From: Raillietiella orientalis
Lineage: Eukaryota
NCBI GenBank assembly: GCA_036172245.1
Contig: JAYWIR010000006.1
Location: forward strand, 3,038,001-3,102,000
Length of the DNA: 64,000 nt
Direction of reading: 5' to 3'
Shown here: positions 10,093-47,083 of the stretch, piece by piece
How positions within the stretch are numbered: position 1 is the first letter of the stretch
Layout: each line of letters begins with the position of its first letter
Program-made: the position numbers and the translations under genes
Notes under the pieces: model-generated
The model's input: only the letters and a program-made list of their open reading frames with translations
Databases searched by the model: none
What the model was told of the DNA's origin: nothing

Positions 10093-11181
10093 CTACCTCT
10101 CGGAGGGCGGGTCCAGGGCCGCGCAGCTGTACTGGGAGCAGTCGCCGTCCTCGTCTAGGAGGGAGTTCCTCAGCGCGCGCACGGACCGCGCGAGGGTTTC
10201 GGGGACGACTCCTTCAGCCATCCTGTGGGGAGAAGGTGGGAGGAGAGGCACCGGTCGCGGGGACGGGGTGGGGCTCACCTGAGAGCGGGCGGGAGGAACC
10301 GGAAGCCGCGGAAGGCGCCGCCCGCGCGGCAGAGCATCCTCTGCGCGCACTCCTCCCTTTCGAGCGCAGCCGTGACCCGGGAGGTCAGCTCGTTGAGGCT
10401 CTCCGCCCCGGCGTCCTTGAGGCTCTTCGCCGTGACCGTGGTCACGGACGGGTAGAAGAAAAAGAAGGCAACGGCCACGATGAGGATGGCTACGGCGATG
10501 GGCAGCAGGTCGACCAGCTTGAAGCCGCCCAGCCACAGGTCCTTGCGGTCCTCCTGTGCGGACGAGGCCGCCGCCTGTTGGGGGTAGTAGTAGTAGTAGG
10601 GGTAGCTGGGCAGTTGGCTGCCGCTTCCCTGGGCGCCTGCCTGGGACGACGCTTGCTGCTGGGCCGCCTCCACCGCCTGTGGCGAGAGCTGCTGAGCGCT
10701 GTAGCCTCCTCCCTGCTGCGAGAACTCCCTCTTGGCGTCGTCGCTAGACCCGGCGGCAGCTGCAGACGCTCCTTGGACACCGAAGGCTCTTCCGGTGAGG
10801 CCACAGGTGGCGTGCAGAAACAGGAAGAGGATGCACAGCTCCTTCTATGCAGGGGTCGAAGGGGGGGAAGGGGGAGAGACAGAGAGGTCATCAGCGATCC
10901 GGCAGAGGCTCCGCGCGCGCGCGGGTTCGCTCGCTCGGGGGCGAGGCCGCGGAGCTTTCACGGAGGAGGCCGCCTACCCCACCCCCCTGCCTCCTTTCTG
11001 GGGTGGGAGCCTTTCCTTTTCCCGCCTCCTCAGCTAGCTCCCGAACGAGGGAAGGGCTCGTACATCCCCTGGAGACACAGAGGGTCTCGGGTCGCTCCCT
11101 CCCGCTGCTGAGGTAGCAACCTCCGCTCCGAAAGGGGGTCCACCCCCCCCCCCACCCCTGATCCTGCGCACCGCTTACCAT
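10093..11181 (-). CDS. Cluster gene A (divergent): secreted/membrane protein with DM4/DM12-like 4-Cys domain, 232 aa; complement(join(10093..10222,10279..10844,11179..11181))
   Basis: ATG|gtaagc donor at 11178; acceptor cctgcatag at 10845 gives signal peptide M-KELCILFLFLHATCG. Then Q/A/G-rich region with YPYYYYYP, hydrophobic LVDLLPIAVAILIVAVAFFFFYP, and EECAQRMLCRAG. A 56-nt phase-2 GT-AG intron (10223-10278) leads to last exon ...GDCSQYSCAALDPPSER*. Exons sum to 699 nt. AATAAA lies ~200 nt downstream (~9890). Confidence 0.85.
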
Positions 11182-11281
11182 TGCTGACGACGGAAGATGA
11201 TCCGGCACGGAAGGACTGCGGTGGAGTCCCGCGGCAAGGACATGAGAACGACGAATCCGGGGACTCCCTCGACGCCCTCGG

Positions 11282-11289
11282 TTTTTATG
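11282..11289 (-). promoter_or_regulatory. TATA-like box (CATAAAAA) of gene A
   Basis: AT-rich motif ~100 nt upstream of the ATG-only first coding exon, in a GC-rich context. Confidence 0.5.
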
Positions 11290-11919
11290 CACTCCCCACG
11301 GAGGCGGAACCGAGGACCAGGGATGGACAAGAGGCCACGGAGGCGAGAGATTGCCATCTCGGTGGCCGGGCCCTCTTCCGCGAGCGACGCGGGAGGGAGG
11401 GGAGCCGAGCCACGCCCGAACGCGCCAGGTCGACCTTGAGGGCTCCTCAGGAAACCCCCGAGCCCGCCCTACACACAAAAACGCGCGCAGGAAACTCGCC
11501 CCGGGGCGCCGCCTCTCCCCTCCTGTTTTCGATGGGGGGAGCTGCGGGAAAACAGAGCGCCTCCCGCCCCAGCAGCCCCTCTGCGAGCAGCAACAACATG
11601 TTTGCGCCGTGAGGTTGCCACGACCTGTTTGTTTGCGGACAGGCGGGGGAAGGCCGCCGCCGAGGAGGGGAACATTCATTTGGGGAGCGACCCACGAGGG
11701 AAGGGTGAAGCCGGGACGGCGGATGGCGTCCGCTCCACGGCCCGCAGTGCGCTCTCGGTCGTCACTCGGGAGACGGGGGCGAAGGAGGAGGAAAGGGAGA
11801 AAAAAGGTTGTTTACGAATTCCCGTGCTAAAGCAGGGAATCCGTAGTCGCTGCGGAAACCCAGGCGGAGGGAGGCGCGGCCGCGCAGCCTCTTTCCCAGC
11901 CGACAGAGATGGTGTGGGG

Positions 11920-12210
11920 GAGGATAAACGGAGAAGGAGAAGAAAAGGAAGAGGAAGGGAGGAGGAGAAGGAAAGGGGGGAAGAGGAAGAAGGGAGGAGT
12001 AGGAGAACTAAAGGATCAGGAAGAGGAGGATGGGGAAGAAGGGAGGAAGAGGAGGGAGGAAGGAGGAGGAGAACTAAATGAGGAGCAATAGGAGGAGGAA
12101 GGGTGGAAAAAGGAGTGGAGGAGAAGCAAAGATGGAGGAAGACGAGCTTGTTTATGAGTCTCTGTGCCGAAGCAAGGATGGGGCGGGGCTCATAGTCGCC
12201 GCGGGAGTCG
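11920..12210 (+). repeat. (GAG/GAA)-rich tract with unique tail, duplicated at 15200-15415
   Basis: Both carry ggagaactaaa and end in tggaggaagacgagcttgttt.tga.tctc...caaggatggggcgg..ctcata. Confidence 0.8.
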
Positions 12211-12549
12211 AGGCGGGCGGCAGGTGGGCTGTCGCATTGTCTCTTCTCTCGGACCCGCCGGACAAACAGATGGGAGCGGCCCCTGTGGACGGCACAGACT
12301 GAAGATGCTCCCGCGTCACTTCGCCCATTTCCAGCATATTGTGACGAGAGCAGAGGAGACCCAGCGGAGGAGGCCTCGGGAGACCAGATGGGACTCGGGA
12401 GACTGCAGATCCCTAAAGCGCCCGCAGTTTGCCACTCCCCGACCTGGCACTCTCACGACTCTTTCCCTTGTGACGGCGCTGGGAACAGACGCATGCATCT
12501 CGGATCTTGCCACGAGATGTTTCAACTCGACATGAATTAGCATTTCTTA

Positions 12550-14400
12550 ATTATAACCATGCAAACTTTTGGTACAGGAGATGAAGCTTAAAAGGCGGAT
12601 TTGAGCAGGCGGGGAAGGAGGAAGAAGGGAGGAGGAGGAGAAAAAGAAGAGGATTCCACCGTCCACTTCCTTCAAATGCCCCTTCAACTCTTGCGTCTTT
12701 TGGAAGCCCTCTCGCTTACAGACGACAGTCCATGTCCGATGCTTCCGGAGCTCGTCACGGGATGAGATGCTGGCGAAGAATGCCGCAGTGACGCCCGACG
12801 GGAGTTCCGCAAATCGCAGGAAAGGAATGGACCGACTGACGACTTCCGCTGGCGGCGGCACGGTTGAAGGGCCGCCGAGGAAGGACCGACTGACGCCCCC
12901 GCTGGAGGCTCCAGAGTTTTCTCCGACGCGCTTTCCTGTGGAAATTCGACTCTTTGTCACTCCTCCTCAGATGCACGGGGCGGTCCTGGAGACCCTGCGA
13001 CGACCACCCTCGCCCGAGCCGCTGCACCCCCTCTGGATGTGCGCCGATCCCCTCATCTTGACCGCCACTCTTCCAAACCGCCCCCTCCGATCCTCTAAGG
13101 GAAGGCGACGATTGTTGGCGCCCTGGGGAAGCTTTCGCTTTCACCAGCTTCCTGACAGGATGCCGATAGGGGCAGTCCTCCAGACCTGGGTCACCAGCTT
13201 TCTCGTCCGCTTGCCGCGACTGCTTGCCTGCTCTTTGAGTGGGACGGTCGGTGACCATGGAAGCGCGAGGTCACCGAAACAGCAACGATGAAAGCCAAAC
13301 CCTCGTGCAAAATACCCATTCCTCTCTGCGAGAGTGGGAGCGTTCGTGCCTGGAAATAGCCGGGCGATGCCCTTGGCAGCGTTCGAACCGGGAGGGTGGG
13401 GCCTTTGTGGCCTGGCAGCTAAAGTGGGATTTCCCCCCTTAGGGGAGGTCACCTCTTCCGCCCCCTGTTCTCTTCCGTATCGTTCTATCTTTTTGCAGGG
13501 CTAGTTGCAACGTCATGACCACCGACACGGCGTCCCCAGACTGGTGGAAGGGCAAGTGCCTAGGGAGGACGAGTTATTTCTAAGTCGCTACGTCACGACG
13601 CTCGGGCTGAACGAGGTGTGCCAGGTGACCCACAACCTGCAGATCACGGATAATGATAACAGCATCAAGCTACACAGAGATGAGGTATCCTCGTGCGAAT
13701 CCGTTCCCTGCCAACACCGGCGGTGTTCTCTTCCAGATTACCATACAGACCAGCGAATAGGTCTCCGGCATTCCCTCCTTTCAAACTTTCTCGAGCAGCC
13801 CGTTGGTCAGTGCAATGCACGGTGGAGGAAGGTCCGCCCGATGCTCCCAATGCATTAGGTGGGGGTATCGGACAAGAAGCATCGTCTTCCTCGAGCCCCG
13901 TCGGCAAGCGCTCGTAAGGGAATGGAGCGTCCAGCACGACGACCGCCTCTCCCCTGCCCTGGCGCACTCGAATGGGTTTTGTCCTCGGATCTGTTCTTGT
14001 AATGGACTAACTGACGGGTGTCGACTCCCAGTGATCAGAGCTCTCGACCCAGGCCACTGACCTCATCCCGCTTCTCCTCAGCCACCTCCCCGTTGTCCTT
14101 CGGATGGCGTCCCAGGTTTTCCCGACCTCTTCCAGATTTCTTCCATGGAGAATCTGCAGGGTGCCAGTGAGAGGCATCCGCAAGGCAGGAGGTCGGTCAC
14201 GCAGGATGGATGGATCTTCGGCGAGCCTATGATGAGCTCCGTCGAACGGAAAGAGCCTCTAGGCGGTTGCCACGAAGCGCTTATACTGAGCGACGGGAGG
14301 TCTTTCTCAGACTGCGAAGGGCTCTTCGGTCGAAAGCGGCCGGGCGGGGTCGCTCCCGTCATGCGTCTCTCTCACGTGGACGGGGTCCGCTGCACGCCCC
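12550..14400 (-). mobile_element. Decayed R2-superfamily (REL) non-LTR retrotransposon fragments
   Basis: VIIRDLQVVG (cf. R2 VIVDVQVVS) at ~13650; EHRADLPPPC (cf. ET.AHILQ.C); RKLVTQVWRTAPIGILSG linker; VTKSRI...NSGASSGGVS and DELRKHRT..VCK (RT start). Many stops and frameshifts. Confidence 0.55.
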
Positions 14401-14439
14401 GCGGAGATCGGAAAACTCCGCTTCCCAGGCCCGCGTCCG

Positions 14440-15140
14440 GGGACCGCGTGACTGGGACTCGTGGCATCGAGAGTCGCAGGTTCGAATCCCGCCTGGGGAA
14501 GGAAGGATCGGAGCAGAGAAATGGGAAGTGCGTCGTGGGTTGCGAGTTCCCCCACCCACCCACCCCCCGCAGGACGACGCTGGCTGGCCCACGAACTTCG
14601 GGTGAGGCACTGGTGGAAGCCGGAAACCCCGGGATGCTCCCGTTGACTAGTCTCTGGGACCGGAAGTCGAGCCTCCAAGGTCCCTATGGGAATCGAGGTT
14701 TCCTTGAGAATTCCTCCATCTCGCACCATGAAACTGGTGGATTGATTCCCCTCCAGAGTGTCCAAGAATCTCACTGATTCCTTCGGGATCTTCAGAGGAG
14801 TACCAGCAAGGCGTGGTCCCTTCGCAGGTTTTCTTCGAAGGATCGATCCCTACAAACCAAGGGGTCCCTCCGGAAGAACAGGGGCGAAGGTTCCCTTCGA
14901 GATTCCTCCCTCAAGCGTGGGCGGAACGAACCCCTTCCTCCGGAGTCTTTTCTGAATTCATGGGTTCACAGAGTTGGACTCATAGAGTGGTCCCTAGGGG
15001 GTATAGGGGTTACCCTGTTAGACATCGAGTCATCGGGGTTACCCCCTATAACTCGATGAGTGACGCGCACCCTAGGGTGGCGTGGACAGCATCAAAGAGC
15101 TCCCGAGGAGGCGGATGGTTCTTCAGCACCCTTTGAGAAC
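14440..15140 (+). mobile_element. tRNA-headed SINE-like repeat, copy 2
   Basis: B-box ggttcgaatccc (14479); gacgctggctggcc..ttcgggtg..ctggtggaagc; 3' gggtggcgtggacagcatcaaagagc..ggttcttcagcac. Confidence 0.7.
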
Positions 15141-15199
15141 CCCCTGAAAAAGAAAAAGAAAGCTGGCAGGAAGAGAGCGAAACCAGAACTCCAAAGCGA

Positions 15200-15614: not shown

Positions 15615-16690
15615 CAAGTACGTTTACTCGTGCTTATTAACATACATGTGATTCATGTGATTAATGATACATCTATTGTGTACACTGATGTATATTATAT
15701 ATATGTTATGTACATTCATACATAGATTAATATGCAAATTTATTTTAACACACGTATTTATTCGTACTTACTAGCATACGTATTCGTGATAGTAATTTTA
15801 ACATATGCATATATGTGTATAATTCGATATACATATTAGTTTAATACATGGCTGGTGTATATTGGAACATATGTATATCTACATATATAGTAAACATATG
15901 TGTTTAGTTTTTATAAGTTTCGTAACATGCATTACTAACGAATTTAATAACTACGCGTGTTAGAATAAAGTTGCATATTAATCTATACATGGATATATTA
16001 ATCTATTCATACATTAGTATGCATAATATATAGATTTAACAGAAATTTATATATGGATAAACAGAAATTTATATATGTTTACGTATGACAATAACTATGT
16101 ACTGAACTAATATATAGTATCGGATTATAAACATATATACATATGTTAAAATTACTATCACGAATACGTATGTTAGTATGTATTAATAGGTACATATGTT
16201 CAAATGAATTTGCATATTAATGTGTATGCAAATATGTGTATTAATATACATAACAAGCATGTATATTTATTTTCCACAGTCTTTATAATATACATTTATC
16301 TCTATATTGATGTATATAATGGACACATTATAAATCGTATACATGTTAATCAGTATCAATAAATATATGTGTTAAAATAATATTGCTAGTAATCATGATA
16401 AATACGTGTGTGAAAATACATATGCATATTAATCTGTATACAAATACACATATCAATGCACATAACACATATATAATGCACATTAACATACATCACACAA
16501 CATTATACATACATAACATATACATAATATACATTAACATATACAATAGACATATTATTAATTATGTTAATCATATGTGTGCTAAGCAGTATTAATAAAT
16601 GCATATGTTGAATTAGTGTTTATGTGTGAGAATATATATTGATCCATATGTAAATGTATGTATCAATAATGTGTGTAGTGAACACACGTG
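15615..16690. repeat. AT-rich island with a long imperfect inverted repeat and degenerate subunits (foldback/MITE-like)
   Basis: 15771-15849 (ctagcatacgtattcgtgatagtaattttaacatatg...) is the near-exact reverse complement of ~16097-16177. The tgcatattaat module recurs at ~15972, 16211 and 16423, and inverted at ~15726. Confidence 0.85.
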
Positions 16691-19853: not shown

Positions 19854-21082
19854 TTATTGAGAGTGGGCGAGGCGGCGGCTGGACAGCTTCCTGGGCAAGC
19901 AGACATACTTTTGGCACTCCTGAGGACTGGACTCTTCGAAGGCCAGGAAGTACTTCTTCAGCCTCCTCGGGACGAACCTGATGATGATCCTGGAACGGAG
20001 GTGCGGGCGGACTCTCACGCTTCCCCGGCGGCGCACAGGGACTCACTGGTTCAGCTCCAGCTTCCGGTAGAAGGTCTTGTTGACGCCGTTCATCTGGCAG
20101 AGCACGCGCTCCACGCACTGCTGGCCGAGATCGTGAGCCTCCGCCAGGGACTTCAGGATGAGGGACCACCGCTCGCTGTCGATGGGCTGGAAGTCGTTTC
20201 CTGGGGGTGGGGGATGTCACAGGGTGGTCACCGGTCGATGGAGACGGGTGGCACGCGAACACCCCTCCGTGGCAGCAGGAGTTTCCCTTCCCCCCTCCTT
20301 CTTCCCCGAGGGCGACTCGGATGGTCGCAAGGCGCAGAGATGGCGGTTCACCTTCCCCGCCCTTTGCCCCCTTCCCGCTCCGCCGCTCACCTTCGTCCAG
20401 GGAACGCCTTCTCCTTCCCGAGTCGGGGACGATCTGCAGGTTCAAAGGGAAGAGGGTCAGGAGCGAGGAGAGCAAGAGCACGGCGACGACGGCATGGGCG
20501 ATAGGCAGGGCGATCAGGATGCCCCGCAGGGCCATCTCTCTTTGCGAGAACTCGGGCATGAATTCGTCATCCATGTAGAAAGGTTCCTCTTCGGGGAACT
20601 GCGGGGCGGCGAGATGCCACGTGGCCTGAGCGAGCAGCACCGCAAGCAGCGGTCTCCAGGGCGACGGTCTCTTCTGCAACGAGTCCGGGGGTGGGTGGGG
20701 CTCAGCTGAGAGGGGGGGAAGGGAGGCGACCCGAGGTCGAGAACGCCTTTTTCTCCGAGGGCAGGGGTGGGCGACGGCACCTCGAGACCTCTCCTCCCTC
20801 GGGAGGGGGGAAGGACGTCGGGACTCCTCCAGGGACCAGGGACCTCCACCGGACGCCGTCCGGGTTCCCCCTTCCCTTCCCTGCGCTTCCCGGAAGAGGA
20901 AAAGGAGGAAGGGCACAGGGAGGAGGGGCGAGGTGCCGGACTTTCTCGCCTCCCTCCTGCGGCGACCCCGAACGGATCAGTGCTGGAGGACTCCCGTCGG
21001 GTTCCCTCAAGGTCTCGTGGAGGAGCAAGGAGGACACGGGTGTAGGGTGCGTGGAGACGGCACTTACGTGATGTTGCTGCAT
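19854..21082 (-). CDS. Cluster gene B: signal peptide + hydrophobic segment + RRRRS + DM4/DM12-like 4-Cys domain, 195 aa; complement(join(19854..19989,20047..20200,20391..20673,21068..21082))
   Basis: gccgccATG MQQHH|gtaagt. Exon 2: KRPSPWRPLLAVLLAQATW...LRGILIALPIAHAVVAVLLLSSLLTLFPLNLQIVPDSGRRRRSLDE (phase 1, gtgagc). Exon 3: ...QQCVERVLCQMNGVNKTFYRKLELN (phase 2, gtgagt). Exon 4: IIIRFVPRRLKKYFLAFEESSPQECQKYVC...*. All junctions canonical, 588 nt total, AATAAA overlaps the stop. Confidence 0.9.
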
Positions 21083-21263: not shown

Positions 21264-22623
21264 AATGTACAGGTAACGGGACCGGGAAGCAAAAAACAAC
21301 TCGCGCATTCCTCGGAACTGGGTCTCCGGAAGTCGCGCGCGGGGGGAGGCGACGAAAAGGAAGGGAAAAAAAACGCGCTATAAAACAACCTGAGGGGGGG
21401 AAGAAGCGAAGGAGAGGAGGGAGAGGAGGAGGGGGAAGAAGAAGGGGGGGAGGAGGAGGGGAAAAAACAGGGAAAAAAGGCCGAGAAGAAGACGGAGGAG
21501 AAGGAGGAGGGCGGAGATGGGAAAAGGAGCAAAAAAAAAGAGTGCACGACTAAGGCGTCAGCAGGAGGAGGAGGCGGGGGGAAAGCAGCACGTGGCCTCC
21601 CGTGCGCAGGCGCGCTCGTGGGAGGGTGGCGCTCTGTCGTCAACGACCACGATGGCAGACGCCCCGCGCTTTCCTCTTCCTCCTCCTCTCCTCCCTCGCC
21701 GGACTCTCGTCGGTGGCTCGGCTTCCATCTCCTGAAGCAAACGATGACGCCGGGAGAGAGCGTGTGTGGTAAAAGGGCGGAGGAGACAGAGGCAACAAAC
21801 GACCTCTCCCTCCTCCGAGGGTGAGGGGGGGAGAAGCGAAGAACCGGGAGACCACCACGAGAGGTGGGCGAGGCGTCTGGCCAGTAGGCCACCCGGATAA
21901 CCTCGCGCCGGCACTCGGAAGAACAGTCTCGGGGCTGCCGTCGTCTGGCGGCGCTGTCGACAGCGGGTCGTCAGCCGCCCGTCTCTCCCCTGGCGGGAAT
22001 GCCATCCTCCCCGTAGGGAAGAGAGTTGGGCGAGATGGACGATGGCTAGGCAGCAGCCACCTCAGCGGCAGTCTCGTGACCCCTTCTTCCGACGAAGGTG
22101 GAGGAGAGAGAAGAGGTTAAAGGGCCAAGGACCTTGGCCCCATCATCACTGCCCCCCAAAACATCGAGGGGTGCGTGACCGCTTGCTCATTTTCCTCGCG
22201 GGGTGGGCAGTAGGTAATGAAGGGAAGAAGGATGCCCGGATGACCACCTCGTCATCCGTCGCCAGCGGTGGTGCAAAGCTGCGTCCCGTCCCGGAAGGTC
22301 TGGCCTGCAGCTTTGCCCCACCTACCTCTACCGAAGAATTCAGGAGACGACGAGCGAAGAGTAGGGGGGTGAGGTGGGCCGTAGGGCCTTTGCTGCACGA
22401 TTTCGAGTTGGTCAGAGCAAGCGTCCGCCTCTATCTTCCCTTCCCTTCGGGGCTCCCCGCAGCCGTAGGAAGGCGGCCCACGGCAGGAGAGGCTCGCGAG
22501 CAGCAGACCGGCCCACGAACGAGGAAAGTGGATGAGTCGTCCCCTTTTATTGACTCGTCGGAAAAGCCTGGAGCTCCCGTGGCCTTCTGAAGGGTCTCTC
22601 TCCTCACGGGCTCGTTCTGGCCC

Positions 22624-23868
22624 TCAGCCCTGGAGGATGGATCCTTTCTTCCTACGGGGGCGGCATGAGTACCGCCGGCACGCCTCGGGAGCGGACTCCT
22701 GGTAGGCGGTGAGGAGCTTCCGGTAGCGCTCGGGTACGAGTCGCTGGACGACGCTGCAACAGAAAAAGGATAGGCTCTGGATCAGCGCGTCGGCGGAAGC
22801 TTTCCGAGATAGAAGGGAGGAGAGAAAAGGCATGAGGGTAGGGACAGGGAGGAAAAAGAAGGGATTTTCCTCCTCCCTCCTCCCCTTTCTCAACCGCACA
22901 AGGTGGTATCGAGGCGAAATGGGAGGAGATAGGGGGGTAGAGGAAGGGAAGAAGAAGCCGCGACACCCCTCCTTAGGAAGCGAGCCCAGGAGGTGGACGG
23001 ACGGGAGCCGAGGAAGAAGCCTGTAGGGGCCCATCTGTCTCTCTCCCGGCGGGGAGCGAAAGGACGCTCTCCGACTGGTATGGAGGCCATGAAGAGGGGA
23101 CGAGGAAGGAGGACTAGGTAGGTAAGTCGCGGGGAGTGGGAAGGCAAAGGGATCGCCTCGGCCCAGTAGAGGGTCGGAGAGAGGACGGAAGGGTCAGGGA
23201 TCACTCGAAGTCTCCCTTACCTGTGCAGGCCCAGCGCTCGGTAAAAGCTCTTGTTGACCCCCTTCATCTGGCAGAGGGTCCTTTCGACGCACTCTCCGCC
23301 GGTCTCCGCGGCGCGAGCCAGGGACTCCAGGACTTCGGACCATTCCCCGACCTCGAGGGGCTGCAGGGCGTCGTTCCCTGCTGGGAGCAAGGCGGTGGAT
23401 CGCTCGCTCGCACTCTCCACCCCCTTCCCTCCCTCGACCCAGTGCCCTCATGGACTCACCGCTCTGAAAAGAGCGCCTCTTCCTCTTCCGGTTCTCGAAG
23501 ATCTGCAGGTCGAGCGGGAACAGCGTGAGGAAGGCCGGGAGCAGCAAGGCCGCCACGATGGCGTGCAGCAGCGGCCAGGCGATCAGCGCGCCCTTCAGCA
23601 CAGCGGTGTCCGTACCAACGACTGCCTCGGATTCGGCCTGGGGGATGTCCGGCGGTAGCAAGAAGATGCCTTCCTGGAGGTCGGGCTCGGGACCGGCCCC
23701 AATCGCGGCGCCGTGCTGCTGCGGGTACGGGGCGTCCGCCGGAAGCAGGTAGGATGGCACCCCGTAGGTATGGCCCTCGGCCGGAGTCGCGGCTCCCAGG
23801 AAGAGCAGCAGGGTCCAGGAGAGGAGGCGAGAAGGAGGAGCGTTTCCTCGGAGACGGTGGCTGTGCAT
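22624..23868 (-). CDS. Cluster gene C: same architecture, ~231 aa; complement(join(22624..22753,23221..23377,23460..23868))
   Basis: Signal-like LLSWTLLLFLGAATPAEG; LKGALIAWPLLHAIVAALLLPAFLTLFPLDLQIFENRKRKRRS with phase-1 gtgagt donor. Exon 2: GECVERTLCQMKGVNKSFYRALGLH (phase-2 gtaagg). Exon 3: VVQRLVPERYRKLLTAYQESAPEACRRYSC...*. Clearly paralogous to genes B and E with identical intron phases. Confidence 0.9.
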
Positions 23869-24719: not shown

Positions 24720-26450
24720 GACGGATCCATTTTCACAAACGGTAGGAAACCCCGAAGGGAACTGACTCTTTGAACTGTCCTGGAAGGACTTCCCAAGGTT
24801 CAAATTTCAATCTCTGCCAGTCAACAGGGCATCCGCCTTCTACCGATACCGCTCCCAAAACCCGTGGGCCACGCAGCGTCGTCCTGCGGAGGTGACTCGA
24901 ACGCAATACCATTTCTCGACTTCGATCTTTAAGGGTATTCGAACCCACTACCACACGCGGAGACCACATTCACAAAAACGCCAACGCGGGCGTTGATATC
25001 GCTGAAACCAGATCACTCGCCTATTAATTGTTGGCCAGAAATTCCTCTTCACTAGCCATTTACTTGTGCCCACGGTAAACCACCGGTGAGAGACTCGCCC
25101 TCGAAGCTAATTGCCGGAGGGAAATCTTGAAAGTCGAGTGCTGACAAGAATGCCATCTTCGAAGCTTGGTACTTCTGAAAACTCACCCTCGAAGCTAATT
25201 GCCGAGGGAAGCTTGTCTCCAGATCTACTGGAGAAATACTAGCTTTCAGTCTCAAGCACTGCCGAGCAACTCTCTTCTGCAACGAGTCCGGGGGTGGGTG
25301 GGGCTCAGCTGAGAGGGGGGGAAGGGAGGCGACCCGAGGTCGAGAACGCCTTTTTCTCCGAGGGCAGGGGTGGGCGACGGCGCCTCGAGACCTCTCCTCC
25401 CTCGGGAGGGGGGAAGGACGTCGGGACTCCTCCAGGGAGGCCAGTCAATTTATAATCTTTATAGATCAGCACTGGTGAGAAGCACCTCTACTGTAAATCA
25501 GAAGTTAGCTTCCGCCGGTGGTCGGTTATATCCTACCGCGCAGCTGCTCATGATCAGGGTGAACTATTTACCGCTCGTTCTTTTCCTAGATTGCTGATCA
25601 GCCTCCCGAACTCACGATCTTTTTCAGTTATCTACTCCATTAAGAACTGCTGGTTGCACAACCGATGACCGCCGTTGGTCATCGGACAGTTTTGGGTCGT
25701 TTGGACAAATCAGTGCTGATCGCTAAAAGCCAGCAATTGCTGGTATCCCACGTGGATGACCGCTGACCAGCTACTGCTCTCCACTTTTAACCACTAGTCA
25801 ATCACTTAATTCTTGTCTTTAGATGGACCATCGAGTCCTCACTCGTCTCCGATGGCTACAAGTTCCCGAATTCTCGCAACCGGCCGGTACAGAAAATCAG
25901 CTAGAACGACGAGTACTGGATCAGTGCGCGACTCTCCGATGCAGCACTCCTTCAAAGCCGGTTACTGCTCAGGCATTCTTCGTCACTTGTGGTTACTAGC
26001 CAGTGGCGCTTTGCTCCGTCACTCGGCACGAAGGAGAGATACTTTGTCTTCGAAAAGTGGCCACGGTCGGTCTTCAGCGCAGGCCAGAAGCCGATCGCCT
26101 GGCTCCGCAACGTACCATAGACCTTCTTACTCATCACTGGTCTTCAGGACCGGGCTTTAGCTACTGCTCAGGACTTCTCCAGCAGCTGCATATGCCATCG
26201 CCTTTCCCTTCTCCTTCGTTACGAGTTCTCCTTCTTCGCCGCTAATTAGCGGTCGGTCACCCGACTTCCTCCGTTAATTGCCGGTTGTTCACTGGTTTTC
26301 GATTAGCTTTCTTTCCGGTGGTCTGTCTCTGGCCGGTGGTGCGCTCTTTCGCCTCAATAGCTTGGGTGATGGCGGTCCGATGAGGACCTGACCGGTGACG
26401 TACCGCTCTTCCTCACCGGTCGCTCTTCGTCTCCGAGTCAATGAGTTGCC
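24720..26450 (-). mobile_element. Possible decayed Ty3/gypsy LTR-retrotransposon internal fragment
   Basis: Lower-GC block with gag-like LADFLYRPVARIRELVAIG (~25880) and RNaseH-linker-like STPALAF...PRVVVGSNT...MVL (~24950). It truncates a SINE-like copy. No LTR pair seen. Confidence 0.3.
25271..25438 (+). repeat. 168-bp direct copy of 20668-20835 (3' end of gene B intron 1)
   Basis: Identical by eye except one substitution (ggcac versus ggcgc). Confidence 0.95.
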
Positions 26451-27726: not shown

Positions 27727-28112
27727 CGGGACTCCTTCCGGAAGTGTGGGCTCGGCTGGAAAGGTGGCGCAGCTGTCTCCTTCCCTGCTGCCGTAGAGTC
27801 GACGCGCGGGTGCTGGGCGCTGCTGTTGCCGGGGCGCTGATCCCTCCGAAGGGTCCGCTGGCAGGAGACGTGGGGCAGACGGAGGCAGGAGGGAGGTCCC
27901 GAAACGGGTGGGAGCAGGAGGCCGGGCTTCTCCGGAAGTTCCCGGAGAGGACGTAAGGGGACAGGGGCGCAGCCGCGCTGCAAGGAGGGACAGGATGGGG
28001 TGGGAGGATCCGAACCGGGGAGCTTATCGTTCCAGAGGGGCGAGCGGACCTTCGTGTGGGAGGCGGCGGCGGCGGCCTGTTCCCGGAGGACCTCCTCTGC
28101 GCGGCTTTTATA
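27727..28112 (-). pseudogene. Orphan TATA box + ACG-AAG|gt mini-exon + 251-nt exon: probable decayed gene
   Basis: TATAAAA at 28106-28112; ACG AAG|gtccgc at 28055-28050; pyrimidine-rich acceptor ccttgcag at 27978; donor cg|gtaagg at 27726. There is no ATG and no clear family motifs. Confidence 0.3.
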
Positions 28113-30032
28113 GGCGCGCGGAGGCCATCCGGGGCAACGGCACCACCCGGCCCGCCTGCTGCCGCCGTGGCCGCGGCACCGCGGCTCCCGTCGATCCAGG
28201 CCAGACGTGTCCGGAAGGCCTCCGGTTGTTTTCCTTTCCCGGGCGCCTACCGTCGGAGGGAGCCGCGCGCGTTCTTCCCCCGGTTGGTAAACAAACGGAA
28301 GCTTTCGCACGCGCGCGCGACCTCTCCGGTCACCTGACCTCTTCGGTTGGTGGGGGAGAAGGAGGAGGAGGAAGACAAGACGGGAGGAATAGGGAGACCG
28401 AAGGCACGGAGGCGCGACGGGACGATCAATACCCGCCACCGCCGCTGCTACCATGGCGACGGACCACCCCTTTGCCTTCCTCCTCTTCAGCTTCCAAATC
28501 AACGGGAAGCACATGGACTCTACATCCTCCTTATGCTCCATAGCAGGATAAGACGATATGAGAAGGAGGAGGAAAGGGGGAAAGGGAGGATGAAAAAGAC
28601 GAGGATGGCAAGAGGATAAGGAAGTGGAAGGGAGATGGAAGAGGCGGAAGGATGGAGGAGGAGAGAGAGGAGGAGGAGAGGAGGGGGAGGAAAAAGGAGG
28701 AACGGACATGCAGGAAGGGTCGTTGTCAGTTCTTCTCTTCCTGAGTGAGGGGAACGGACGTCAGGAAAGCGGGGAAGTTTCTCTGCTCCCGGAAACCCCC
28801 CCACGTCCTGTATCCCAGGGAAACCACTCTCGAGTCGCTTGGGAACGCACGCTCCGACGCGCGGTTCCTTTTATTGTCGCCAGCCATCTTCAAGTTTGCC
28901 ATGCCGGCGAAGCCTTTACCGCCAATGCTAGAGTCTCCTCGCCAGCACTGCTGCCACCGTCGTCGTCGTCGTCCCGCTACTGGTCTGCTGGAAGAATCGC
29001 CGCCCTCCGGCAGAAGTTGTGATCCTGGTAGGCAAGGTCCTCGGTCTTCCACCTGAGGCAGTGAAGAGTACACTTTCCTTTCTTCTCCTTTTCTGTCTCT
29101 TTTTTTTGCCCCTCTTTTCCCCGCCCCGCTATCCTGTACAGGGATGCACGGCGCCCTCGGTTCGCCGTGCAGCCCTGTGCAGCGGGAGGTGACGAGCGCG
29201 CTCTGCAAACCTCCGGTGACCTGAGCAACCGGAAGTGGGGAGGGGAGGAGGAGGAAGACGACGGCGGCGGAAGCAAGCGAGGGCACACAGGGACGGTCGA
29301 GGGCTGGATTCTCCCTGCTTTTGTCTCTTCCTTGTCACCCATTCTTGGGGTGTGGGGTAGGGGAGGACCTACCGTCTCCTCTCTCCCCCTTGTCTCTCTC
29401 ACCTGCTTTCCTTGCCCTCCTGAGCCTGGTTGCAGCACCGATCGAGGGATAGAAGTCCAGTTGCTGCGCATCCACCCTGGCCGTGAGGGCAGACCTCAGG
29501 ACGCCCTCCGCCCTTTCGTCTGGAAGGACAAAGAGACCCCTATGGAAATGCAGAGGAGGTGGTGAGTTGACGGACGCCCCCCTCTTCTGCCTCCAATCCC
29601 CCTCACCCGCAGGGCAGTCCTCTAGCTTCCCCACCAACCGATGTGAGCGCGCTTTCCCTCAGGGTTTTCCGGGGAGGACGCACCAAAGGCAGAGCCTTTG
29701 GCTCTCAGAAACTCCCTCTGCCCTTTCTTTGCTGACTGCCTCCCGCATTCGCCTTGCCCCATTAGTCCGGCGGACTTGAGTCCCTCCAAGCAAGGATCCG
29801 GTAAGAGAATTCAGCGGCTCTCGGCCTCCAGCAGTACACAGGAGGAACAGCGGGCGACCGGTTTCCGTGGAGACCGCGACGTCCTCACGGGGGACGAGTG
29901 AACACCTCCCAGAGGCTTCGGGTGGCACTGGCGAGTTGGTTCCCGGAAAGCACACGCCCGTCCGCTCCCTCCCATCCTCTCCGCTTCTCTCTTCAGGAAG
30001 CCCCTCGTCTCCCACGGAAGGGACGCTCCCAT

Positions 30033-30607
30033 CTAGTAACTCCGGAAGCGACCGGGGAAGAGTGGGAGGAGCCCCTTCTTCGCTACCTCCTCCGCTGCTG
30101 TTGCTGAGCCAGAAGGGGACGGAGATCCGCAGCTGCGTGGTTCATTGGCCACCACCCCCCCCTCCCAAGCGGGAGGTGGGGCGACGGACCACTTGCCGAA
30201 GGAATCCGAATCTTCGTCCCCTCTCAGCTCTGCCCCCACATGCGCTGTAGGGAAGGGAGGGATCTTTCGCTCCACCCGTCGCGAGAAAAAGGAATACCTA
30301 TGGACCGCTTTTGCGGCTGGCTGCTGGTGATGCTGAGGTTCACTGGGAACATGAGACTGGCCGCATTGGCCAGGATGATGGCGATGATCAAGAAGAGGAC
30401 GGGGTAGGCAATGAGGGCCCCACGGACGGCGTCGGTTGCCAGCTCGTCGGCGTCCTGCCTCAGCACCAAGGAGTCCTCGTCGTCGCCGTCGCTGCTGTCC
30501 TCGTCCAGCAGCCGCCTGTGGTAGAGCCGCAGGCTCTCCGCCATGCACCAGGACGGCGCCAGCACCAGCAGACACAGAGGCACTACTCTCATCACGTCCG
30601 TCCCCAT
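30033..30607 (-). CDS. Cluster gene D: signal peptide + acidic region + hydrophobic segment + QKRS, no Cys domain in the nearest exon; complement(join(30033..30244,30298..30607)), ~173 aa, 3' end uncertain
   Basis: MRVVPLCLLVLAPSWCMA signal; DEDSSDGDDED; VRGALIAYPVLFLIIAIILANAASLMFPVNLSITSSQPQKRS aligns with the B/C/E hydrophobic segment. Phase-1 donor ag|gtattc at 30297 and a 53-nt intron to ccctacag. Exon 1 is secure; exon 2 is tentative. Confidence 0.7.
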
Positions 30608-38829: not shown

Positions 38830-39490
38830 TCCCCGCGCGTGGCGTCAGGCGTTGCGGGTTCGAATCTTGCCCGGGGAAGAGTTGACGCAGAGAACGGGAG
38901 GCGAGTCGTGGGTTTCGAGTCTCCCCGCAAGATGACGCTGGTTGACTTGCAGGCTTCGGGTGCGGCGCTCGTGGAAGCAACCGGAAACCCTTGAATGTGC
39001 CCGTTGAGTGACCAACATCAAAAGTTGACCCTCAGGACTGCTCAAGGAGCACCGGTCCCCTCCGGTTCTGCAAGCGAAGTGTTTCCCTTTCCTTCCTGGG
39101 GTGACTTCTCCATCTCGTAAAACTGGTGGATCGAGGATACCTCCCCAGAGGTATCCTCGCCAAGAAGCGCGCTGCTCCCTTCGAAGAGTCACCTTCAAGA
39201 GAAATTGGGAATCTTTCCTCCGGGAATCTCTTCAGAGAAGGGAATGAGGAATGGATCCTTTCCGGGGGTCCCTCCAGAGAGAATAAGGGAGAGGTCCCTT
39301 CGGGCTCCCTCCCAAGCATAAGGGGAACGGGTTCCTTCCTCCAAATGCTTCCTGGATTCATAGAATGGTCCCTCAGGGATCTCCCCCAAACTTGAAGGAG
39401 GACATGAACCCTGGGTTGGCGTGGCCAGCGTTAAAGAGCTTCACGACGTCCGCCTTAAGGAGGCAAACGGTTCTTCAGCACTCCTTGAGA
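38830..39490 (+). mobile_element. tRNA-headed SINE-like repeat, copy 4
   Basis: gggttcgaatc; ccccgcaagatgacgctgg..ttcgggtgcggcgc; gatacctcccc..aagaagcgcgctgctccc; 3' ggcgtggccagcgttaaagagc..ggttcttcagcac. Confidence 0.7.
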
Positions 39491-39599: not shown

Positions 39600-40392
39600 A
39601 CTTTCTCCGGAGACTTAGAATCGACTGAACCATGCTCAAAGGCTGTTCGCATGGAAACGCTCCTCCACATCAGACCTCCAGGATCTCTCTGGAGTAGTTG
39701 CTGCTACCACCAAGATCTATGCCGACGGCGGCTCCAGGCGAGCTCCCGCCCAAACCCTTCTGCGCGCACCGTCGCAACACTCCTACTCGCCGGAACCTGA
39801 GGAACCTGCCGTTCCTCCGCAACTACGCCCGGAAGGCAGGATTGGCTCTGTCTCGACGCTTGAGCGCCATCCATTTTCAGGGCTAGTTGCTTCGGCAGGT
39901 GAGTCGCTACACAATCCTTCGCGAATTCCGACTTCCATGGCCACCGTCCTGCTGTCCATAGCAACCAACACCTTTCATGGGATCTGATGAGCGTCGCATC
40001 GAGCGCCGTAACCCAACGTTTGGTTCATCCCAAAGAGCCAGTCTGCTTACCAAAATGGACCCACTGGGCGCTCATGGATCCGACAGTTCGAGCTTCAGCT
40101 TTCAAGCAAGCCGGACTTCTCGCTCATTTAAAGTTTGAGAAAAGGTTGAGGTCATTTCGGCCCCAAGGCCTCTAATCGCTCACTTTAACGGATGAGACTC
40201 TGTCCTTTTTCTGCTCCAGTGAGCGCCAGCTATCCTAAGAGAAACTTCGGAAAAAACCAGCTACTAGATAGTTCGATTAGTCTTTCGCCCCTATGCCCAG
40301 GTCTTACGACCAATTTGCAGGTCAGGATCTCTGCGGACCACCAGAGTTTCCTCTGACTTCGCCCTGGCCAGGCATAGTTCACCATGTTTCGG
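39600..40392 (-). pseudogene. 28S (LSU) rRNA fragment, decayed copy (from about D3 to about D7a)
   Basis: Reverse complements of universal LSU motifs: catagttcacca, cagctactagat.gttcgattagtctttcgcccctat, gagcgccatccattttcagggctagttg.ttcggcaggtgagt, ccgacttccatggccaccgtcctgctgtc, cttag.atcgactga. Substitutions at normally invariant sites (e.g. atcctaagagaaacttcggaaaaaacc for atcctgagggaaacttcggagggaacc), and no flanking rDNA. Confidence 0.93.
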
Positions 40393-40499
40393 AGCCGTAA
40401 TCACAAAGCCTCTGACGCCGCTGGGGGCGTTTGCCGACTCCCTCGGAAAGTCAGCAGGTTCCCGACAACCTGGAGCTGCCTTCGGCGAGTTTCTGGAAT

Positions 40500-42600: not shown

Positions 42601-42679
42601 CGAAGGACCTTCAGGCTGCACCCAGCAGACGGGAGCATCCAGGCAAGTCGCTAAAAATGAAGAGGGGCGCCCCCACGTT

Positions 42680-43130
42680 AGCGGCCGTGGTAGCTGCGGT
42701 CTTTGCGTGCGGCACAGAACGTCGCGGTTTCGAATCCCACCCGAGGAAGATCGACGCCGAGAACGCAGGGTGCGTCGTCGGTTTCGCATCCCTCCGCAAG
42801 ATGATGCTGGCTGGCCTGTTCGGGTGCGGCGCTGGTGGAAGCAGCCGGAAACCACCGGATGCCCCCGTTGAGTTGTCCCGGATTGTTGTCAAAAGGGAGC
42901 GTCCCCACACGAGGGTGAGACCCTACATCGCGTGCCATGTAGCTGATTGATACCTCCCTCGGGGGGTGTGGCCTTTAGAATGTAAGAAGCGCGCTGTTCC
43001 CTTTGGGGCTCCCCTACCAACAGTAAGAGGAACGGACTCCTTCCTCCGGAGCCCTTCCTGGATTCGTAAGGTCGTCCTTCTTTCTCTGTTGCCCCCTAAC
43101 AATGGAAAAAGAGCTCCTCCGCGAAGACGT
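42680..43130 (+). mobile_element. tRNA-headed SINE-like repeat, copy 5 (3'-truncated)
   Basis: ggccgtggtagctgcggtc..ggtttcgaatccc; ccgcaagatgatgctggctggcc..ttcgggtgcggcgctggtggaagc; gatacctccc..aagaagcgcgctgttccc. Confidence 0.7.
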
Positions 43131-44039
43131 GATCCCGAGCGCAGTTGCTGAGTCGCCAAGTCGCATTCTCGGCTTCTCTCTAGGCCAGTGGCCTAGAGAG
43201 AATTTGGTGTTTCCGTGCGGAGGCAGGGTCGCGTGGATATGTAGACGAAATGCTGCCGCCCGCAGGAAGGAAGGGGGGGGACTGATTCGCACGCCCACCG
43301 CGAAATGCTCCCCGTCGTCCTCCCTATCCCTGATGCTCGCGAAGAGCCCGATTTGCATGCAGGACGGCGGGGAAACCACTGCATCGCCGCCCGGAGGTCA
43401 CGTCGGTCTACGGCATCACAACAGCACACACCGCATCGTGCCCTGGAGTGACGTACTGGTCTCGCAGCCAGCGTGGGCATGACGATGCCACTTTGAATCT
43501 TCAAGTACTCGGAAATCTCAACAGCAAAAAAAAAAAAAAACGGAAGAGTTCGCTGTTTGTTGTTTTTGTCCTTGTTTGCTTGTTTTGCGCGCGTGCTCGC
43601 GTGTGCTAAGTTCTTATGGTAACGCGGCTTCAGAATCTCCCTTTCCTCCCTTCATCTTCTAGGCAACGCTTGCTGGGGATTCCAAGGAAAGCGAAGGGGG
43701 GGGTTGCCAGGCAGACCTCCAGGACCGCGCTCTGGTTTCCCGAAAGCGTCCCTGCGCCGCGTGTGGGGTCTCCATGCCGACGAGAAAGAAAACCAGAATC
43801 GTATAAACAAATAGAGTGTTTAATTTCTGTGCACAATTTGTTAGGGACAGTACGTATGAATACGCAACAAGCAGCAAGCAACAATCCAGGGGACTTTCCA
43901 GGACGTGTCATCCAAGCCCACACACGATCCGCCGACCGTTACGTAATTCATACTTGTTCTCTCTGGGGTTTGCTGGTGGTGACTTCTTCCTCGTCTCATG
44001 CGGGGGAGTTACTCCTGAGGAATATTCGCCCGTGAGCCA

Positions 44040-46022
44040 CTAGAATCCTGTTCTTGTTCGGTCGCTCTTGGAGCACTTGTAGCTGCTGCACATCTTAGAG
44101 TCCGTAATCTTGTAGGCGTCTAAGTATTTGCCTAGCCTTCTTGGAACGAAGAGCTTCGCGATTCTGGGGAACAAAAGTCGTCATGAGCGAACCGAGCTTT
44201 CCGATCCCCGGCAAAGTCACAGCCCCCTACTGCCCCCCCCCCCCTTCCGCAACGTTCGCAGGACGCATGCTGGAGAGGTCGCGGGAGGCCCTCATCGATA
44301 GGAAATTATCAGATTCGCTTTCCAGAGGTTACCGGGTGACACATTTTGGAAATGGAGCAGATTCGAATCAGACACCCGCGCAGCCAGGAATACAAATCGG
44401 AAGCGGCCGCTCGCTCTTCGCAGCTGACGAAGTCTCTCGATTTCGCAAGGAGTTGCTTGAATTTTGGTTACACGAAAAGAAAACCGGAAAAAAATTAAAT
44501 AACATGGAAAGCTCCCACTCTGTAATCGGGTCGAGAAGTACGAACGAGCCGTTGACGAGAAGAGGGGGATTAATCGATGGCAGGTAGATTAGTAAAAAAG
44601 AAGACTTGAACCATTTTTTCTTTCTTTCTTTCTTTCGTCTCCCCTTATGCTGCTAATTCCTTAGTAGCACGGTGAAATTTCAGCGCGGAAAGACGCACTC
44701 TTTTCGGGGTGAAATTGCTGGAGTAGAGAGTGAAGGACACCTACTTGTGGACCCTTTCCTTGTAGAACTGCTTGTTGACACCACCCATTTCGCAGAGCAT
44801 CCTCTCCATGCACTCTTCTCCTCTCATCGCAGCCACGTAAATCTTGTTAAGGTTCTCCTTCCATTCCTCGACGGTCAGGGGATGAGAGCCATCTATGAAA
44901 TGAAATCGGAATTACAGGAGCGCTCTTGAGACGGGAGGGGGCCGTCCCGCGACGAAGAGGAGCTTAGGTGCGGTGCACAAGTGCCAAGGAGGAGGGGGTT
45001 TTTTTGTCTTTGTGAGAGTGTGCGTAGGTCCCTTTACTCCGCCCCGCCCCATCTCCCTCCCCACGCCACTCCAAGTGAGGTGGAGTTCAGTGCTTGCTGG
45101 AAACGGGGAGCGCGGGGGAAAAAGGTGCCGCGTCCACTTACTGTGCTGATGACTAAGCCACATCTGGGCACATGCTGTGGTCACTTACTGTGCTGATGAA
45201 TAATCCACACCTGGGCACGAAGTGCATCCTGGACACGTCGGCGAACCCGGAGGAAGGAATCGGAAAGAGGAACGTACACACACAAAAAAAGGATCCTCCA
45301 GGGCAAAGGGCGGAAGCTCGTGTCGCCCTTTCGCACTGCTCGAAACGGAGCGAGGGAAGCTGAGAAGACAGCCCTGCAGGGTGATCGGCCTCCCATCCTC
45401 GCACGCCTCGAACTCCCGGCCGGACGAAGAGCACTCTCACCCTTCGTCCGGCCTTCCTGCGTCTACCCCACCCGCCCTTGTTTTTCCCCCGACCCGGATC
45501 CCCCCTGTCGGGCCTGCCGGCTTCCGCCGGAAAGCCTCTGCGGGGGGATGGGGCGCGCACATAAACCAGTAGGACGGAGGCATCGGAGGCCTCACCTTCC
45601 GCATGCAGGAAGGGGGACACCTCCTACCCCTAGAGATCGAAGGGTGACCGCCGCCCTCGCAGCAACGACAGTGGCTATGCATCGGCCAGGAGAACACATG
45701 TCGGAGGGGGGGGAGGAGAAGAAGAGGGCATGAAGAACTCACCGTCGAGCGCAGACCTTCTCCTCCTTCCTTGGGTAGGCGTCACGGTGATATTCAAAGG
45801 GAAGAGACTGCCCAGGGCCGCGAGCAAGAGCGCGGCTATCACCACGTAGATGATGGGCCACGCGATCACGGCCTGCCTCAGCACGATCAACTTCTTCTCT
45901 AGGTCGTCGTCGTCCTCGTAATCGTAAACGGGGAAGTCGTTCGGGCTATAGTTGGCTCCGTTGCTAAGCGACAGGGCGCTCACGGAGAAGAAAAAGAGTG
46001 CTGTTCTCGCCAGAGGGTGCAT
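44040..46022 (-). CDS. Cluster gene E: same architecture, 183 aa; complement(join(44040..44163,44745..44892,45743..46022))
   Basis: accgccATG; signal TALFFFSVSALSLSNG; YDYEDDDD; LRQAVIAWPIIYVVIAALLLAALGSLFPLNITVTPTQGRRRRSALD (phase 1, gtgagt). Exon 2: GEECMERMLCEMGGVNKQFYKERVH (phase 2, gtaggt). Exon 3: IAKLFVPRRLGKYLDAYKITDSKMCSSYKC...GF*. 552 nt in frame. The minus-strand frames of exons 2-3 are not in the ORF track. Confidence 0.9.
45135..45220 (+). repeat. 47-nt tandem duplication in gene E intron 1
   Basis: cacttactgtgctgatga.taa.ccaca.ctgggcac at 45135 and 45182. Confidence 0.85.
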
Positions 46023-46458
46023 GGCGGTGAAGGGGTGCTGAGGAAGATAAGACAGGGTGCTTACGGTCTCCTTGGCCTCCCGGGGAAAAAAAGGAAGAGG
46101 AGATGCAGAGCGGGCTCAGGGTGCTCGTTCCTCGGGACCACGGGGGTCCAGCAACACCCCTCCTTCCCGTTCCCTCCCGTGAGACGACCCTCTATCCGCC
46201 TCCCATCTTTCGACCCCTTCCGGGAACGCAGAGAAGGTGCAGCGGCAACCTCTTCCGTCCTCATCAACCCCTTCGTGACCTTCCCGCCCCGGGGCTTCCG
46301 GATTCATTCGGAGCTACGCGGGGCTTCTCGAGTTGAACGGGTGAACCGCCGGGGGCAAAGGGCGCACGCTACCGGGCTGCTTCGGGTCGTAGACCGAAGA
46401 AAGCGCCTTTTCCTCTGGTCTTCCCTCGCAAGGACTCCCGGGAGTCCAAGCAGGGGTG

Positions 46459-47083
46459 TCAAACGAACAAAGAGAGGGAGGGAAGGAGGGGGGAGGAAAA
46501 GGCTGCATGGATCCACAGCGAACGTGGGCGGTGGTTCCTCTTGGCTTCGTTCTTGAGGTCGACTCCTTCTGCCAAAAGTGCTGTGGGAGGGGAAGGGGGA
46601 AGGGGGGAGGTTGGGCGTGCCGGTGGTGCTGGTGCCTGTGCTGGCGCCTGTGCTGGTGGTGCTCTTGCGGTGGTGTTCTGGGTGCATCTTACCCTCCTCC
46701 GGTCCGTCGACGCTGCGGCGGCGCCTGACGGCGGCCAGCGTGATCCCTGGTCCCAGAAGGAGACCCAGCATGCCGATGGCAGTGAGCCCGAAGAGCATCA
46801 TCGGGATGCTCATGCCAATGCGACTGCCCTGGTCCACTTCGTCGTACTGCAGCTCCTCCTGCTTTGGGGGGGTGCCGCGGAAGTCGTCGTAGTCGACCGG
46901 GAACCCCTCCGCGTGCTTCAGCAGGGACCCCTGCTTGGGGTAGATGGGCACCCTGTAATCTCTCCCCTGCCGGGGTTGCGGCGCGCTTTCGTTCGCTGCC
47001 GGCGACGACGACGACGACGACGTTGCCGTGGCGACAGCAGCGGACAGCACGAGGCACAGCTTGAAACCTGAGACTAGCTGCAT
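46459..47083 (-). CDS. Cluster gene F: signal peptide + RQGR + Gly/Met-rich hydrophobic segment + RRRRS, short Cys-less tail; complement(join(46459..46580,46693..47083)), ~170 aa, 3' exon uncertain
   Basis: MQLVSGFKLCLVLSAAVATA signal; PRQGRD; IGMSIPMMLFGLTAIGMLGLLLGPGITLAAVRRRRSVDGPEE with phase-1 g|gtaaga donor at 46692. The nearest acceptor cccacag (46581) gives in-frame ALLAEGVDLKNEAKR...FV*. Confidence 0.75.

Follow-up and report, generated by a model that had tools for sequence, protein, structure and literature searches.

The window analysed here, 64,000 nucleotides of Raillietiella orientalis contig JAYWIR010000006.1 (contig positions 3038001-3102000; contig C6 in our labels), contains an array of six genes, A to F, all on the minus strand, which spans 37 kb (window positions 10093..47083). 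We concluded that the array is real, bounded and under purifying selection. Profile and tree comparisons place the four-Cys domain of its products as a divergent sister subfamily of the Pfam domain DM4_12 (PF07841), lying below the Pfam cut-off, and not as a plain member. For the role of the products, lumenal processing at a basic site together with a function in the cuticle is our best explanation, to which we give a probability of about 0.45.

An earlier reading made from the letters alone (the sequence-only reading) had described six co-oriented genes with shared motifs, and this description was borne out: its three most specific patterns match nowhere else in the six frames of the window. 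The pattern [LVIM][RK][GQ]xx[IL]AxP has exactly four matches in the 64 kb (B at 20529, C at 23598, D at 30427, E at 45881), C-x-[EQ]-R-x-[LVI]-C exactly four (A at 10349, B at 20117, C at 23291, E at 44812), and NKxFY three (B, C and E). Joining exons at GT-AG boundaries gave intact open reading frames (ORFs) of 232 amino acids (aa) for A, 195 aa for B, 231 aa for C and 183 aa for E, with intron phases 0,2 in A, 0,1,2 in B, and 1,2 in both C and E. In these models the basic site of B-F is followed by a phase-1 donor, and the Cys domain of A, B, C and E is interrupted by a phase-2 intron, the same phases that the sequence-only reading had given. The B, C and E proteins have four Cys each, all within the C-terminal domain. 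A polyadenylation word was found downstream of each of A-E, and TATA-like words upstream of A, B, C and F. Signal peptides of A-F were judged by hydropathy and by eye; the N-terminal 19-residue hydropathy window exceeded 1.6 in A, D and F only. The modelled features are as follows.

11179..11181 (-): gene A exon 1, whose coding part is the start codon alone, followed by a phase-0 intron; TATA-like word near 11289; the joined form opens the public protein P0001.
10279..10844 (-): gene A exon 2, with signal peptide, Ala/Gln-rich stretch, poly-Tyr-Pro motif, 30-aa uncharged segment and first half of the Cys domain; phase-2 donor.
10093..10222 (-): gene A exon 3, encoding the C-terminal half of the Cys domain up to the stop codon; AATAAA at 9895.
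21068..21082 (-): the first coding exon of gene B, of 5 codons, with a TATA-like word near 21265; its junction is a prediction.
20391..20673 (-): gene B exon 2, with signal peptide, acidic stretch, 33-aa uncharged segment, and Gly followed by four Arg; phase-1 donor.
20047..20200 (-): gene B exon 3, encoding the N-terminal half of the Cys domain and ending in a phase-2 donor.
19854..19989 (-): gene B exon 4, encoding the C-terminal half of the Cys domain; stop overlapped by AATAAA.
23460..23868 (-): gene C coding exon 1, with signal peptide, spacer, hydrophobic segment and polybasic site; phase-1 donor; the likely promoter is the TATA word at 28112.
23221..23377 (-): gene C exon 2, encoding the N-terminal half of the Cys domain and ending in a phase-2 donor; another possible acceptor lies 3 nt upstream.
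22624..22753 (-): gene C exon 3, encoding the C-terminal half of the Cys domain; AATAAA at 22551.
30298..30607 (-): gene D coding exon 1, with signal peptide, acidic stretch, 37-aa uncharged segment and dibasic site; weak phase-1 donor; G+C content at third codon positions (GC3) 0.88.
28928..29539 (-): candidate 3' exons of gene D, either 29496-29539 or 29403-29519 plus 28928-29052; AATAAA at 28875.
45743..46022 (-): gene E coding exon 1 (acceptor 46037), with signal peptide, acidic stretch, 36-aa uncharged segment, and Gly followed by four Arg; phase-1 donor.
44745..44892 (-): gene E exon 2, encoding the N-terminal half of the Cys domain, with a weak Pfam DM4_12 match; phase-2 donor.
44040..44163 (-): gene E exon 3, encoding the C-terminal half of the Cys domain; ATTAAA at 43824.
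46693..47083 (-): gene F coding exon 1, with signal peptide, Ser-rich and acidic spacer, 31-aa uncharged segment and four Arg; phase-1 donor; TATA word at 48260 upstream.
46459..46580 (-): candidate last exon of gene F, with no AATAAA or ATTAAA before gene E; as a hypothetical alternative, the F exon would be spliced in frame to E exon 2.

The splicing of gene A is supported by a public sequence. A protein search with A exon 2 returned a single match, P0001 (231 aa), from a public contig (longest 918 nt), which is 93% identical to this exon. Model A and P0001 align end to end with 14 differences, of which 10 fall in residues 1-79 and none in residues 80-147. Both junctions are crossed without insertion, and both gene A introns (334 and 56 nt) are absent from the P0001 coding contig. 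The simplest reading is that P0001 is a spliced transcript from a near relative. The splice junctions of B-F are predictions from sequence signals. No intron-free product of B-F was found among 8000 candidates scored with an alignment of the B-F first exons, the search with a mixed family alignment returned P0001 and three palaemonid proteins with no B-F product, and none of 587 pattern matches to C exon 2 was confirmed in metagenome contigs; none of these results is evidence of silence.

A family hidden Markov model (HMM) was run over the 6,982 frames of a 224-kb stretch with the window at its centre, and A-F were the sole matches (domain E <0.001; next best 0.19). The limits of the array agreed with those from tblastn, and neither method found an extra copy within 80 kb on either side; the array is therefore bounded. 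Paralog identity is 25-53% (39-53% among B, C and E), consistent with the old and diversified family that had been proposed. The ratio of nonsynonymous to synonymous substitution (dN/dS) was 0.57 for B-C, 0.41 for B-E and 0.34 for C-E (134-140 codons). GC3 was 0.74-0.88 across all six genes, including D and F.

Homologues outside the window were searched with P0001. In phmmer against 1.84 billion representatives, eight distant matches were obtained (E 1e-7 to 3e-4), three of them named uncharacterised proteins: XP_027225796.1 of Penaeus vannamei, KAK7069727.1 of Halocaridina rubra and XP_068216489.1 of Palaemon carinicauda. The mixed family alignment search added two Macrobrachium homologues, P0013 and P0014. 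The decapod proteins (Penaeus, Halocaridina, Palaemon, Macrobrachium) share the signal peptide, a Tyr-Pro motif as in A, the hydrophobic segment, the basic site and C-x5-C...C-x4-C, but they are only 21-32% identical to A, and the sources name no function for them. An HMM of 10 outside homologues scored A at 94.5, E at 62.8, B at 34.0 and C at 32.9 bits, against a maximum of 9.4 bits in controls of 200 shuffles and one reversal per protein; D and F scored 0-5 bits. With an HMM of B, C and E, D scored 35-36 bits and F 1.0 bit. When D and F were left out of the family HMM, their first exons scored 19.3 and 25.7 bits, and the shuffle maxima were 5.0 and 5.3 bits, respectively (1000 shuffles each; 812 and 948 scored). 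A search of the whole 210-Mb assembly with the outside protein P0003 gave five matches, three of them on A, E and F. These sequence scores support six paralogs, F most weakly.

The motif [LV][RK][GQ]xxIAxP...FP was not found elsewhere in this genome and marks B-E as a local subgroup by sequence. A single poly-Tyr-Pro-type paralog of gene A lies at C2:441600-443100, with the inner phase-2 intron at the same position (Cys2+17). Judged from these comparisons, the A-F subfamily is unnamed, crustacean-wide, old and diversified. The family is not peculiar to this genome, as its homologues in the four decapod genera indicate. No description of the subfamily was found in the open literature, subscription journals and supplements excepted. 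An ESM Atlas search with C exon 1 gave a best score of 0.85, of low recognition and to be taken as a lead only, and an NCBIfam scan matched nothing real.

Against Pfam, in which the DM4_12 gathering cut-off is 22 bits, B, C and E were scanned exon by exon. E exon 2 matched DM4_12 at 14.8 bits (E 0.048), and four of the eight outside homologues matched it at 14.3-18.7 bits, each time as the best family and each time below the cut-off; P0001 had no Pfam match. No DUF1676 match was obtained in these scans. In this genome, 15 DM4_12 matches were found, 13 of them above the cut-off, 10 clustered on contig C7 and none in the window. The cluster at C7:520000-550500 comprises 10 or more canonical DM4_12 genes, distributed over both strands. 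In the ESM Atlas, the top three matches (0.91-0.92) were arthropod clusters in which 28%, 91% and 10% of members carry DM4_12. When the subfamily profile was aligned by hhalign with a profile of eight spliced C7 domains, some of which have doubtful last exons, the score was 24.2 (E 8.4e-4, probability 24%), and the maximum in 60 column shuffles was 16.1; with the window domains alone, E was 0.016. The C7-domain profile scored gene E at 12.3, C at 9.1, B at 6.1 and A at 1.1 bits, and the outside homologues at 7.6-20.6 bits. Homology to DM4_12, as had been suggested, is upheld by the profile-profile match, and plain membership is not.

Both groups have a four-Cys helical domain of about 85-115 aa, with a basic site ahead of it and a phase-2 intron within it, and the C1-x5-C2 spacing in a CxxRxxC[EQ]-type motif after a helix is also found in the subfamily. 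None of the 14 subfamily domains compared (those of A, B, C and E and 10 more) has lost any of the four Cys. The differences are clear, however. The spacing C3-x4-C4 is present in 14/14 subfamily domains and C3-x6-C4 in 7/7 others, a criterion drawn from the Pfam-positive members of this genome and not from the Pfam text, and the tree separates the two with support of 100/99. The subfamily has in addition a conserved [FV]VP motif and a strong hydrophobic segment of 27-66 aa. The intron before the domain is in phase 1 in the subfamily and in phase 2 in canonical genes. The inner intron lies about 6-7 codons earlier in the alignment of the subfamily; the idea that it is shared with canonical DM4_12 was dropped despite the same phase, and because of this distance a common origin is not claimed. 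One gene at C11:1210142-1211590 mixes the traits. It has a Gly-rich spacer, a hydrophobic segment and a first domain half like that of B, C and E, with 42% identity in a 38-residue alignment to C exon 2 (E 0.1), and its second half has C-x6-C; it sits on a long branch in the tree and its placement is unsure.

Two AlphaFold models of P0001 (13 and 9 rows; mean predicted local distance difference test score, pLDDT, 52 and 56) drew a four-helix domain with a domain pLDDT of about 70-80. No match to a solved fold, saposin-like or other helical disulfide folds included, was found with these models (Foldseek best E 2.9; VIA best Z 4.7 among 48,161 chains), and a sequence search of the PDB gave no match (best E 0.22). 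PF07841 is called a family of unknown function in the open-literature paper that mentions it.

D and F required separate treatment, since no Cys domain was found in their models and their 3' exons are ambiguous; the D donor is also non-consensus. Two candidates for a degenerate Cys exon were rejected: 29403-29519 in D, where 443/3000 shuffles scored as high against B (62-210/1000 at the DNA level), and 46459-46580 in F, where 1035/3000 did. Each of the two genes lies directly upstream of a domain-bearing gene, with a compatible phase-1 donor, and splicing to the Cys exons of the neighbor keeps the frame open (F to E, 220 aa; D to C, 198 aa). On the outside HMM the scores of the joined proteins resemble those of E and C, which is expected because the domain drives the score. 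Neither AATAAA, ATTAAA nor a TATA word occurs in the 437 bases before E, where there is one AATGAA; the nearest TATA word upstream of E is that at 48260, beyond F, and the first coding exon of E has an acceptor at 46037. From this arrangement it is plausible that F may share a transcription unit and Cys exons with E. For D to borrow Cys exons from C would be less plausible, because each gene has a signal of its own, an AATAAA for D and a TATA word for C.

Three further observations concern the models of C and F. A 599-codon open frame surrounds F, and coding upstream of 47083 was rejected in it; the frame is GC-rich, spans strong splice signals and has no Met before 47083. A 17-codon upstream ORF at 47074-47127 (-) begins at the first base of the F exon and overlaps the F start codon in a different reading frame. 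The long 5' region of gene C contains, at 25271-25438, a 168-bp, 99.4% identical copy of the gene B intron 1/exon 2 junction (20668-20835), which suggests that this segment was very recently duplicated locally or captured by a mobile element.

The layout of a signal peptide and one hydrophobic or transmembrane segment, which is seen in A-F by hydropathy, recalls the Osiris proteins. According to PMC12825958, planthopper Osi17 and Osi24 carry DM4_12, and their knockdown leads to soft-cuticle, wing and hatching defects; they resemble A-F in the signal peptide, the hydrophobic segment, the C-terminal position of the domain and membership in a clustered, co-oriented family. A fly study describes Osi17 and Osi24 knockouts as lethal and Osi genes as expressed in cuticle-secreting cells (10.1101/2024.02.06.579014). 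The Osiris domain DUF1676 (PF07898), however, matched no window exon and no homologue, so A-F are not Osiris proteins. The Osiris N-terminal Cys pair and the C-terminal AQxLAY were likewise absent on inspection of the gene models. Osiris is reported as insect-only; in this genome neither DUF1676 nor 7tm_6 was matched, in searches run without positive controls, and RR-type cuticle-protein domains gave 14 matches. From these markers an arthropod is supported, and a non-insect pancrustacean is no more than likely. Drosophila Desi (CG14686) is described as an epidermal single-pass protein of about 260 aa in the cuticle assembly zone and sensillum lymph (PMC4661605). Its size and layout, compared by description, are like those of A-F, and we do not claim orthology. 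Desi probably also carries DM4_12.

In the explanation that we prefer, the A-F products would enter the secretory pathway, as their hydrophobic N-terminal leaders suggest. The long uncharged segment, with its Pro and Gly, would bind membrane or lipid while the C-terminus stays out of the cytosol, and the basic site and the four-helix, four-Cys domain would then be lumenal. A furin/PC2-type convertase would cleave at the basic site and free a disulfide-bonded domain and a hydrophobic, sometimes amidated peptide. At the moult both products would reach the apical side of epidermal or sensillar cells that secrete cuticle and, by analogy and as the least certain step, would aid the building or sealing of the lipid-rich outer cuticle. 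D and F would retain the hydrophobic cargo with no Cys exons of their own.

Several features of the segment and the site are consistent with this explanation. The uncharged run of 27-66 aa exceeds one membrane pass and contains Pro and Gly, as well as His in B and C. Ser or Asp follows the first basic run C-terminal of the hydrophobic segment in 13/16 proteins. Gly precedes this run in 7/16, compared with 31/251 other basic runs (p 0.002, a post hoc value from rows that are not independent), and Gly before basic residues is an amidation signal. R-x-[KR]-R occurs in five of the 16 proteins (B, C, E, F and P0003), and D is dibasic. In the canonical C7 genes, 6/9 examined have an Arg codon just before the domain that is split by the phase-2 intron, the other three having no credible upstream exon. 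Kyte-Doolittle hydropathy over 19 residues reaches 0.69-1.65 in the 75 residues before the canonical C7 domain and 2.0-2.8 in the A-F segments, which indicates that in C7 a basic site precedes the domain but no transmembrane-grade segment does. N-glycosylation sequons were located on the C-terminal side of the segment in 9/13 proteins against 5.3 expected, a weak excess (59/2000 shuffles as high). A Lys-Arg pair with an acidic residue soon after the signal peptide was also noticed in gene A (10744-10755 region), P0004, P0008, P0009, P0013 and P0014, and could be a second convertase site on the N-terminal side.

Other observations weigh against lumenal processing. The site of A consists of one Lys, none is clear in P0013 and P0014, and Gly is absent before the basic run in 9/16 proteins. 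A signal peptide plus one segment of hydropathy 2.0-3.1, flanked in B, C, E and F by acidic residues on its N-terminal side and basic ones on its C-terminal side, is the textbook positive-inside pattern of a type-I membrane protein, and with one membrane pass the basic site and the Cys domain would be in the cytosol, where neither furin nor disulfides act. AlphaFold draws the A segment as one helix of 21-22 residues, at low confidence (pLDDT 56-66), and shows no packing of it on the domain (predicted template-modelling score 0.31-0.34). The cuticle link derives from Osiris fusions, whose DUF1676 is absent from the A-F proteins; the co-regulation and the cuticular site of action put forward in the sequence-only reading would hold by analogy with Osi17/Osi24. 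The cleavage site proposed in the sequence-only reading is accordingly retained in part: a furin-type site in B, C, E and F, a dibasic one in D, and an indirect Ser/Asp and Gly context speak for it, but A has neither type of site and the charge pattern of B, C, E and F fits a type-I protein equally well.

A-F could thus be uncleaved type-I membrane proteins with a lumenal low-complexity N-terminus, one helix and a cytosolic helical domain that acts as a trafficking adaptor (apical or endosomal, epidermal), as proposed for Osiris and Desi. The charge asymmetry and the hydropathy values just given favor this, as do the single helix in both AlphaFold models, the DM4_12 of Osi17/24 near the C-terminus of proteins with a transmembrane region and the single-pass Desi (PMC4661605). 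It is at odds with the four invariant Cys, the Ser/Asp conserved after the basic run and the frequent Gly before it, the net neutral or negative charge of the 15 residues downstream in most outside homologues, and the canonical members, whose related domain has a basic site ahead of it but no strong hydrophobic segment. We hold it to be a serious possibility with the odds somewhat against it. Unlikely, in our judgment, is that A-F are precursors of gland secretions or of signalling or defence peptides (cement, seminal, salivary, immune or hormone-like) without a link to cuticle building. The order of signal peptide, acidic spacer, hydrophobic peptide, Gly and basic site does resemble peptide precursors, the paralogs diverge fast, and an intron-free product was recovered for A alone, perhaps a sign that the genes differ in tissue or stage. 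The freed segment, however, lacks the charge of cationic defence peptides, peptide units are not repeated, and the functional data found for DM4_12-bearing proteins all concern the integument.

Decay of most of the array, with A alone functional and D and F as truncated pseudogenes, would agree with the missing domain in D and F, the weak donor of D, the failure to find a B-F product, and the repeats and ribosomal DNA (rDNA) fragment in the region. The frames, however, are intact over 3-4 exons, the GC3 range includes D and F, dN/dS is <0.6 and A-E have their own polyadenylation words, and we regard such decay as highly improbable; that D and F alone are pseudogenes has a modest chance, on the unlikely side. 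Returning to lumenal processing, an extended form of it may be stated, although we consider it a long shot. The DM4/DM12 domain would be a cleavable, disulfide-bonded escort that brings very hydrophobic, lipid-like and partly amidated peptides of 30-60 residues by way of the secretory pathway to the outer cuticle, pan-arthropod and older than Osiris, which would have taken over the domain in Osi17/24. F would use the Cys exons of E from a shared promoter and D those of C, or the domain in trans, so that the array would work as a cargo-swapping cassette of borrowed domains. The BRICHOS domain of surfactant protein C offers an analogy.

The surrounding sequence contains several other elements. 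Between D and E, 39634-40447 (-) is an isolated fragment of large-subunit ribosomal RNA (model positions 665-1888 of 3401), probably an rDNA pseudogene. A dispersed repeat of about 160 bp with a tRNA-like box is present at 14463-14652, 38833-39009, 42681-42877 and 60595-60768, in copies 70-78% identical; ARAGORN found no tRNA in it, and it is possibly a short interspersed element. An AT-rich island with imperfect AT/AC simple repeats and inverted self-matches lies at 15640-16690 within a region of 60% GC.

Tandem arrays of divergent paralogs are ordinary genomic structures, and the value of this one is the handle that it gives on the DM4/DM12 domain. This domain is arthropod-wide and has no biochemical role assigned in the open-literature papers found, yet it is carried by two essential Osiris genes. 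The A-F array defines a sister subfamily that is missed by Pfam and unannotated in farmed shrimps and prawns. Whether its domain is lumenal and cut from a hydrophobic peptide, or cytosolic, bears on how the outer cuticle is built in arthropods without Osiris.

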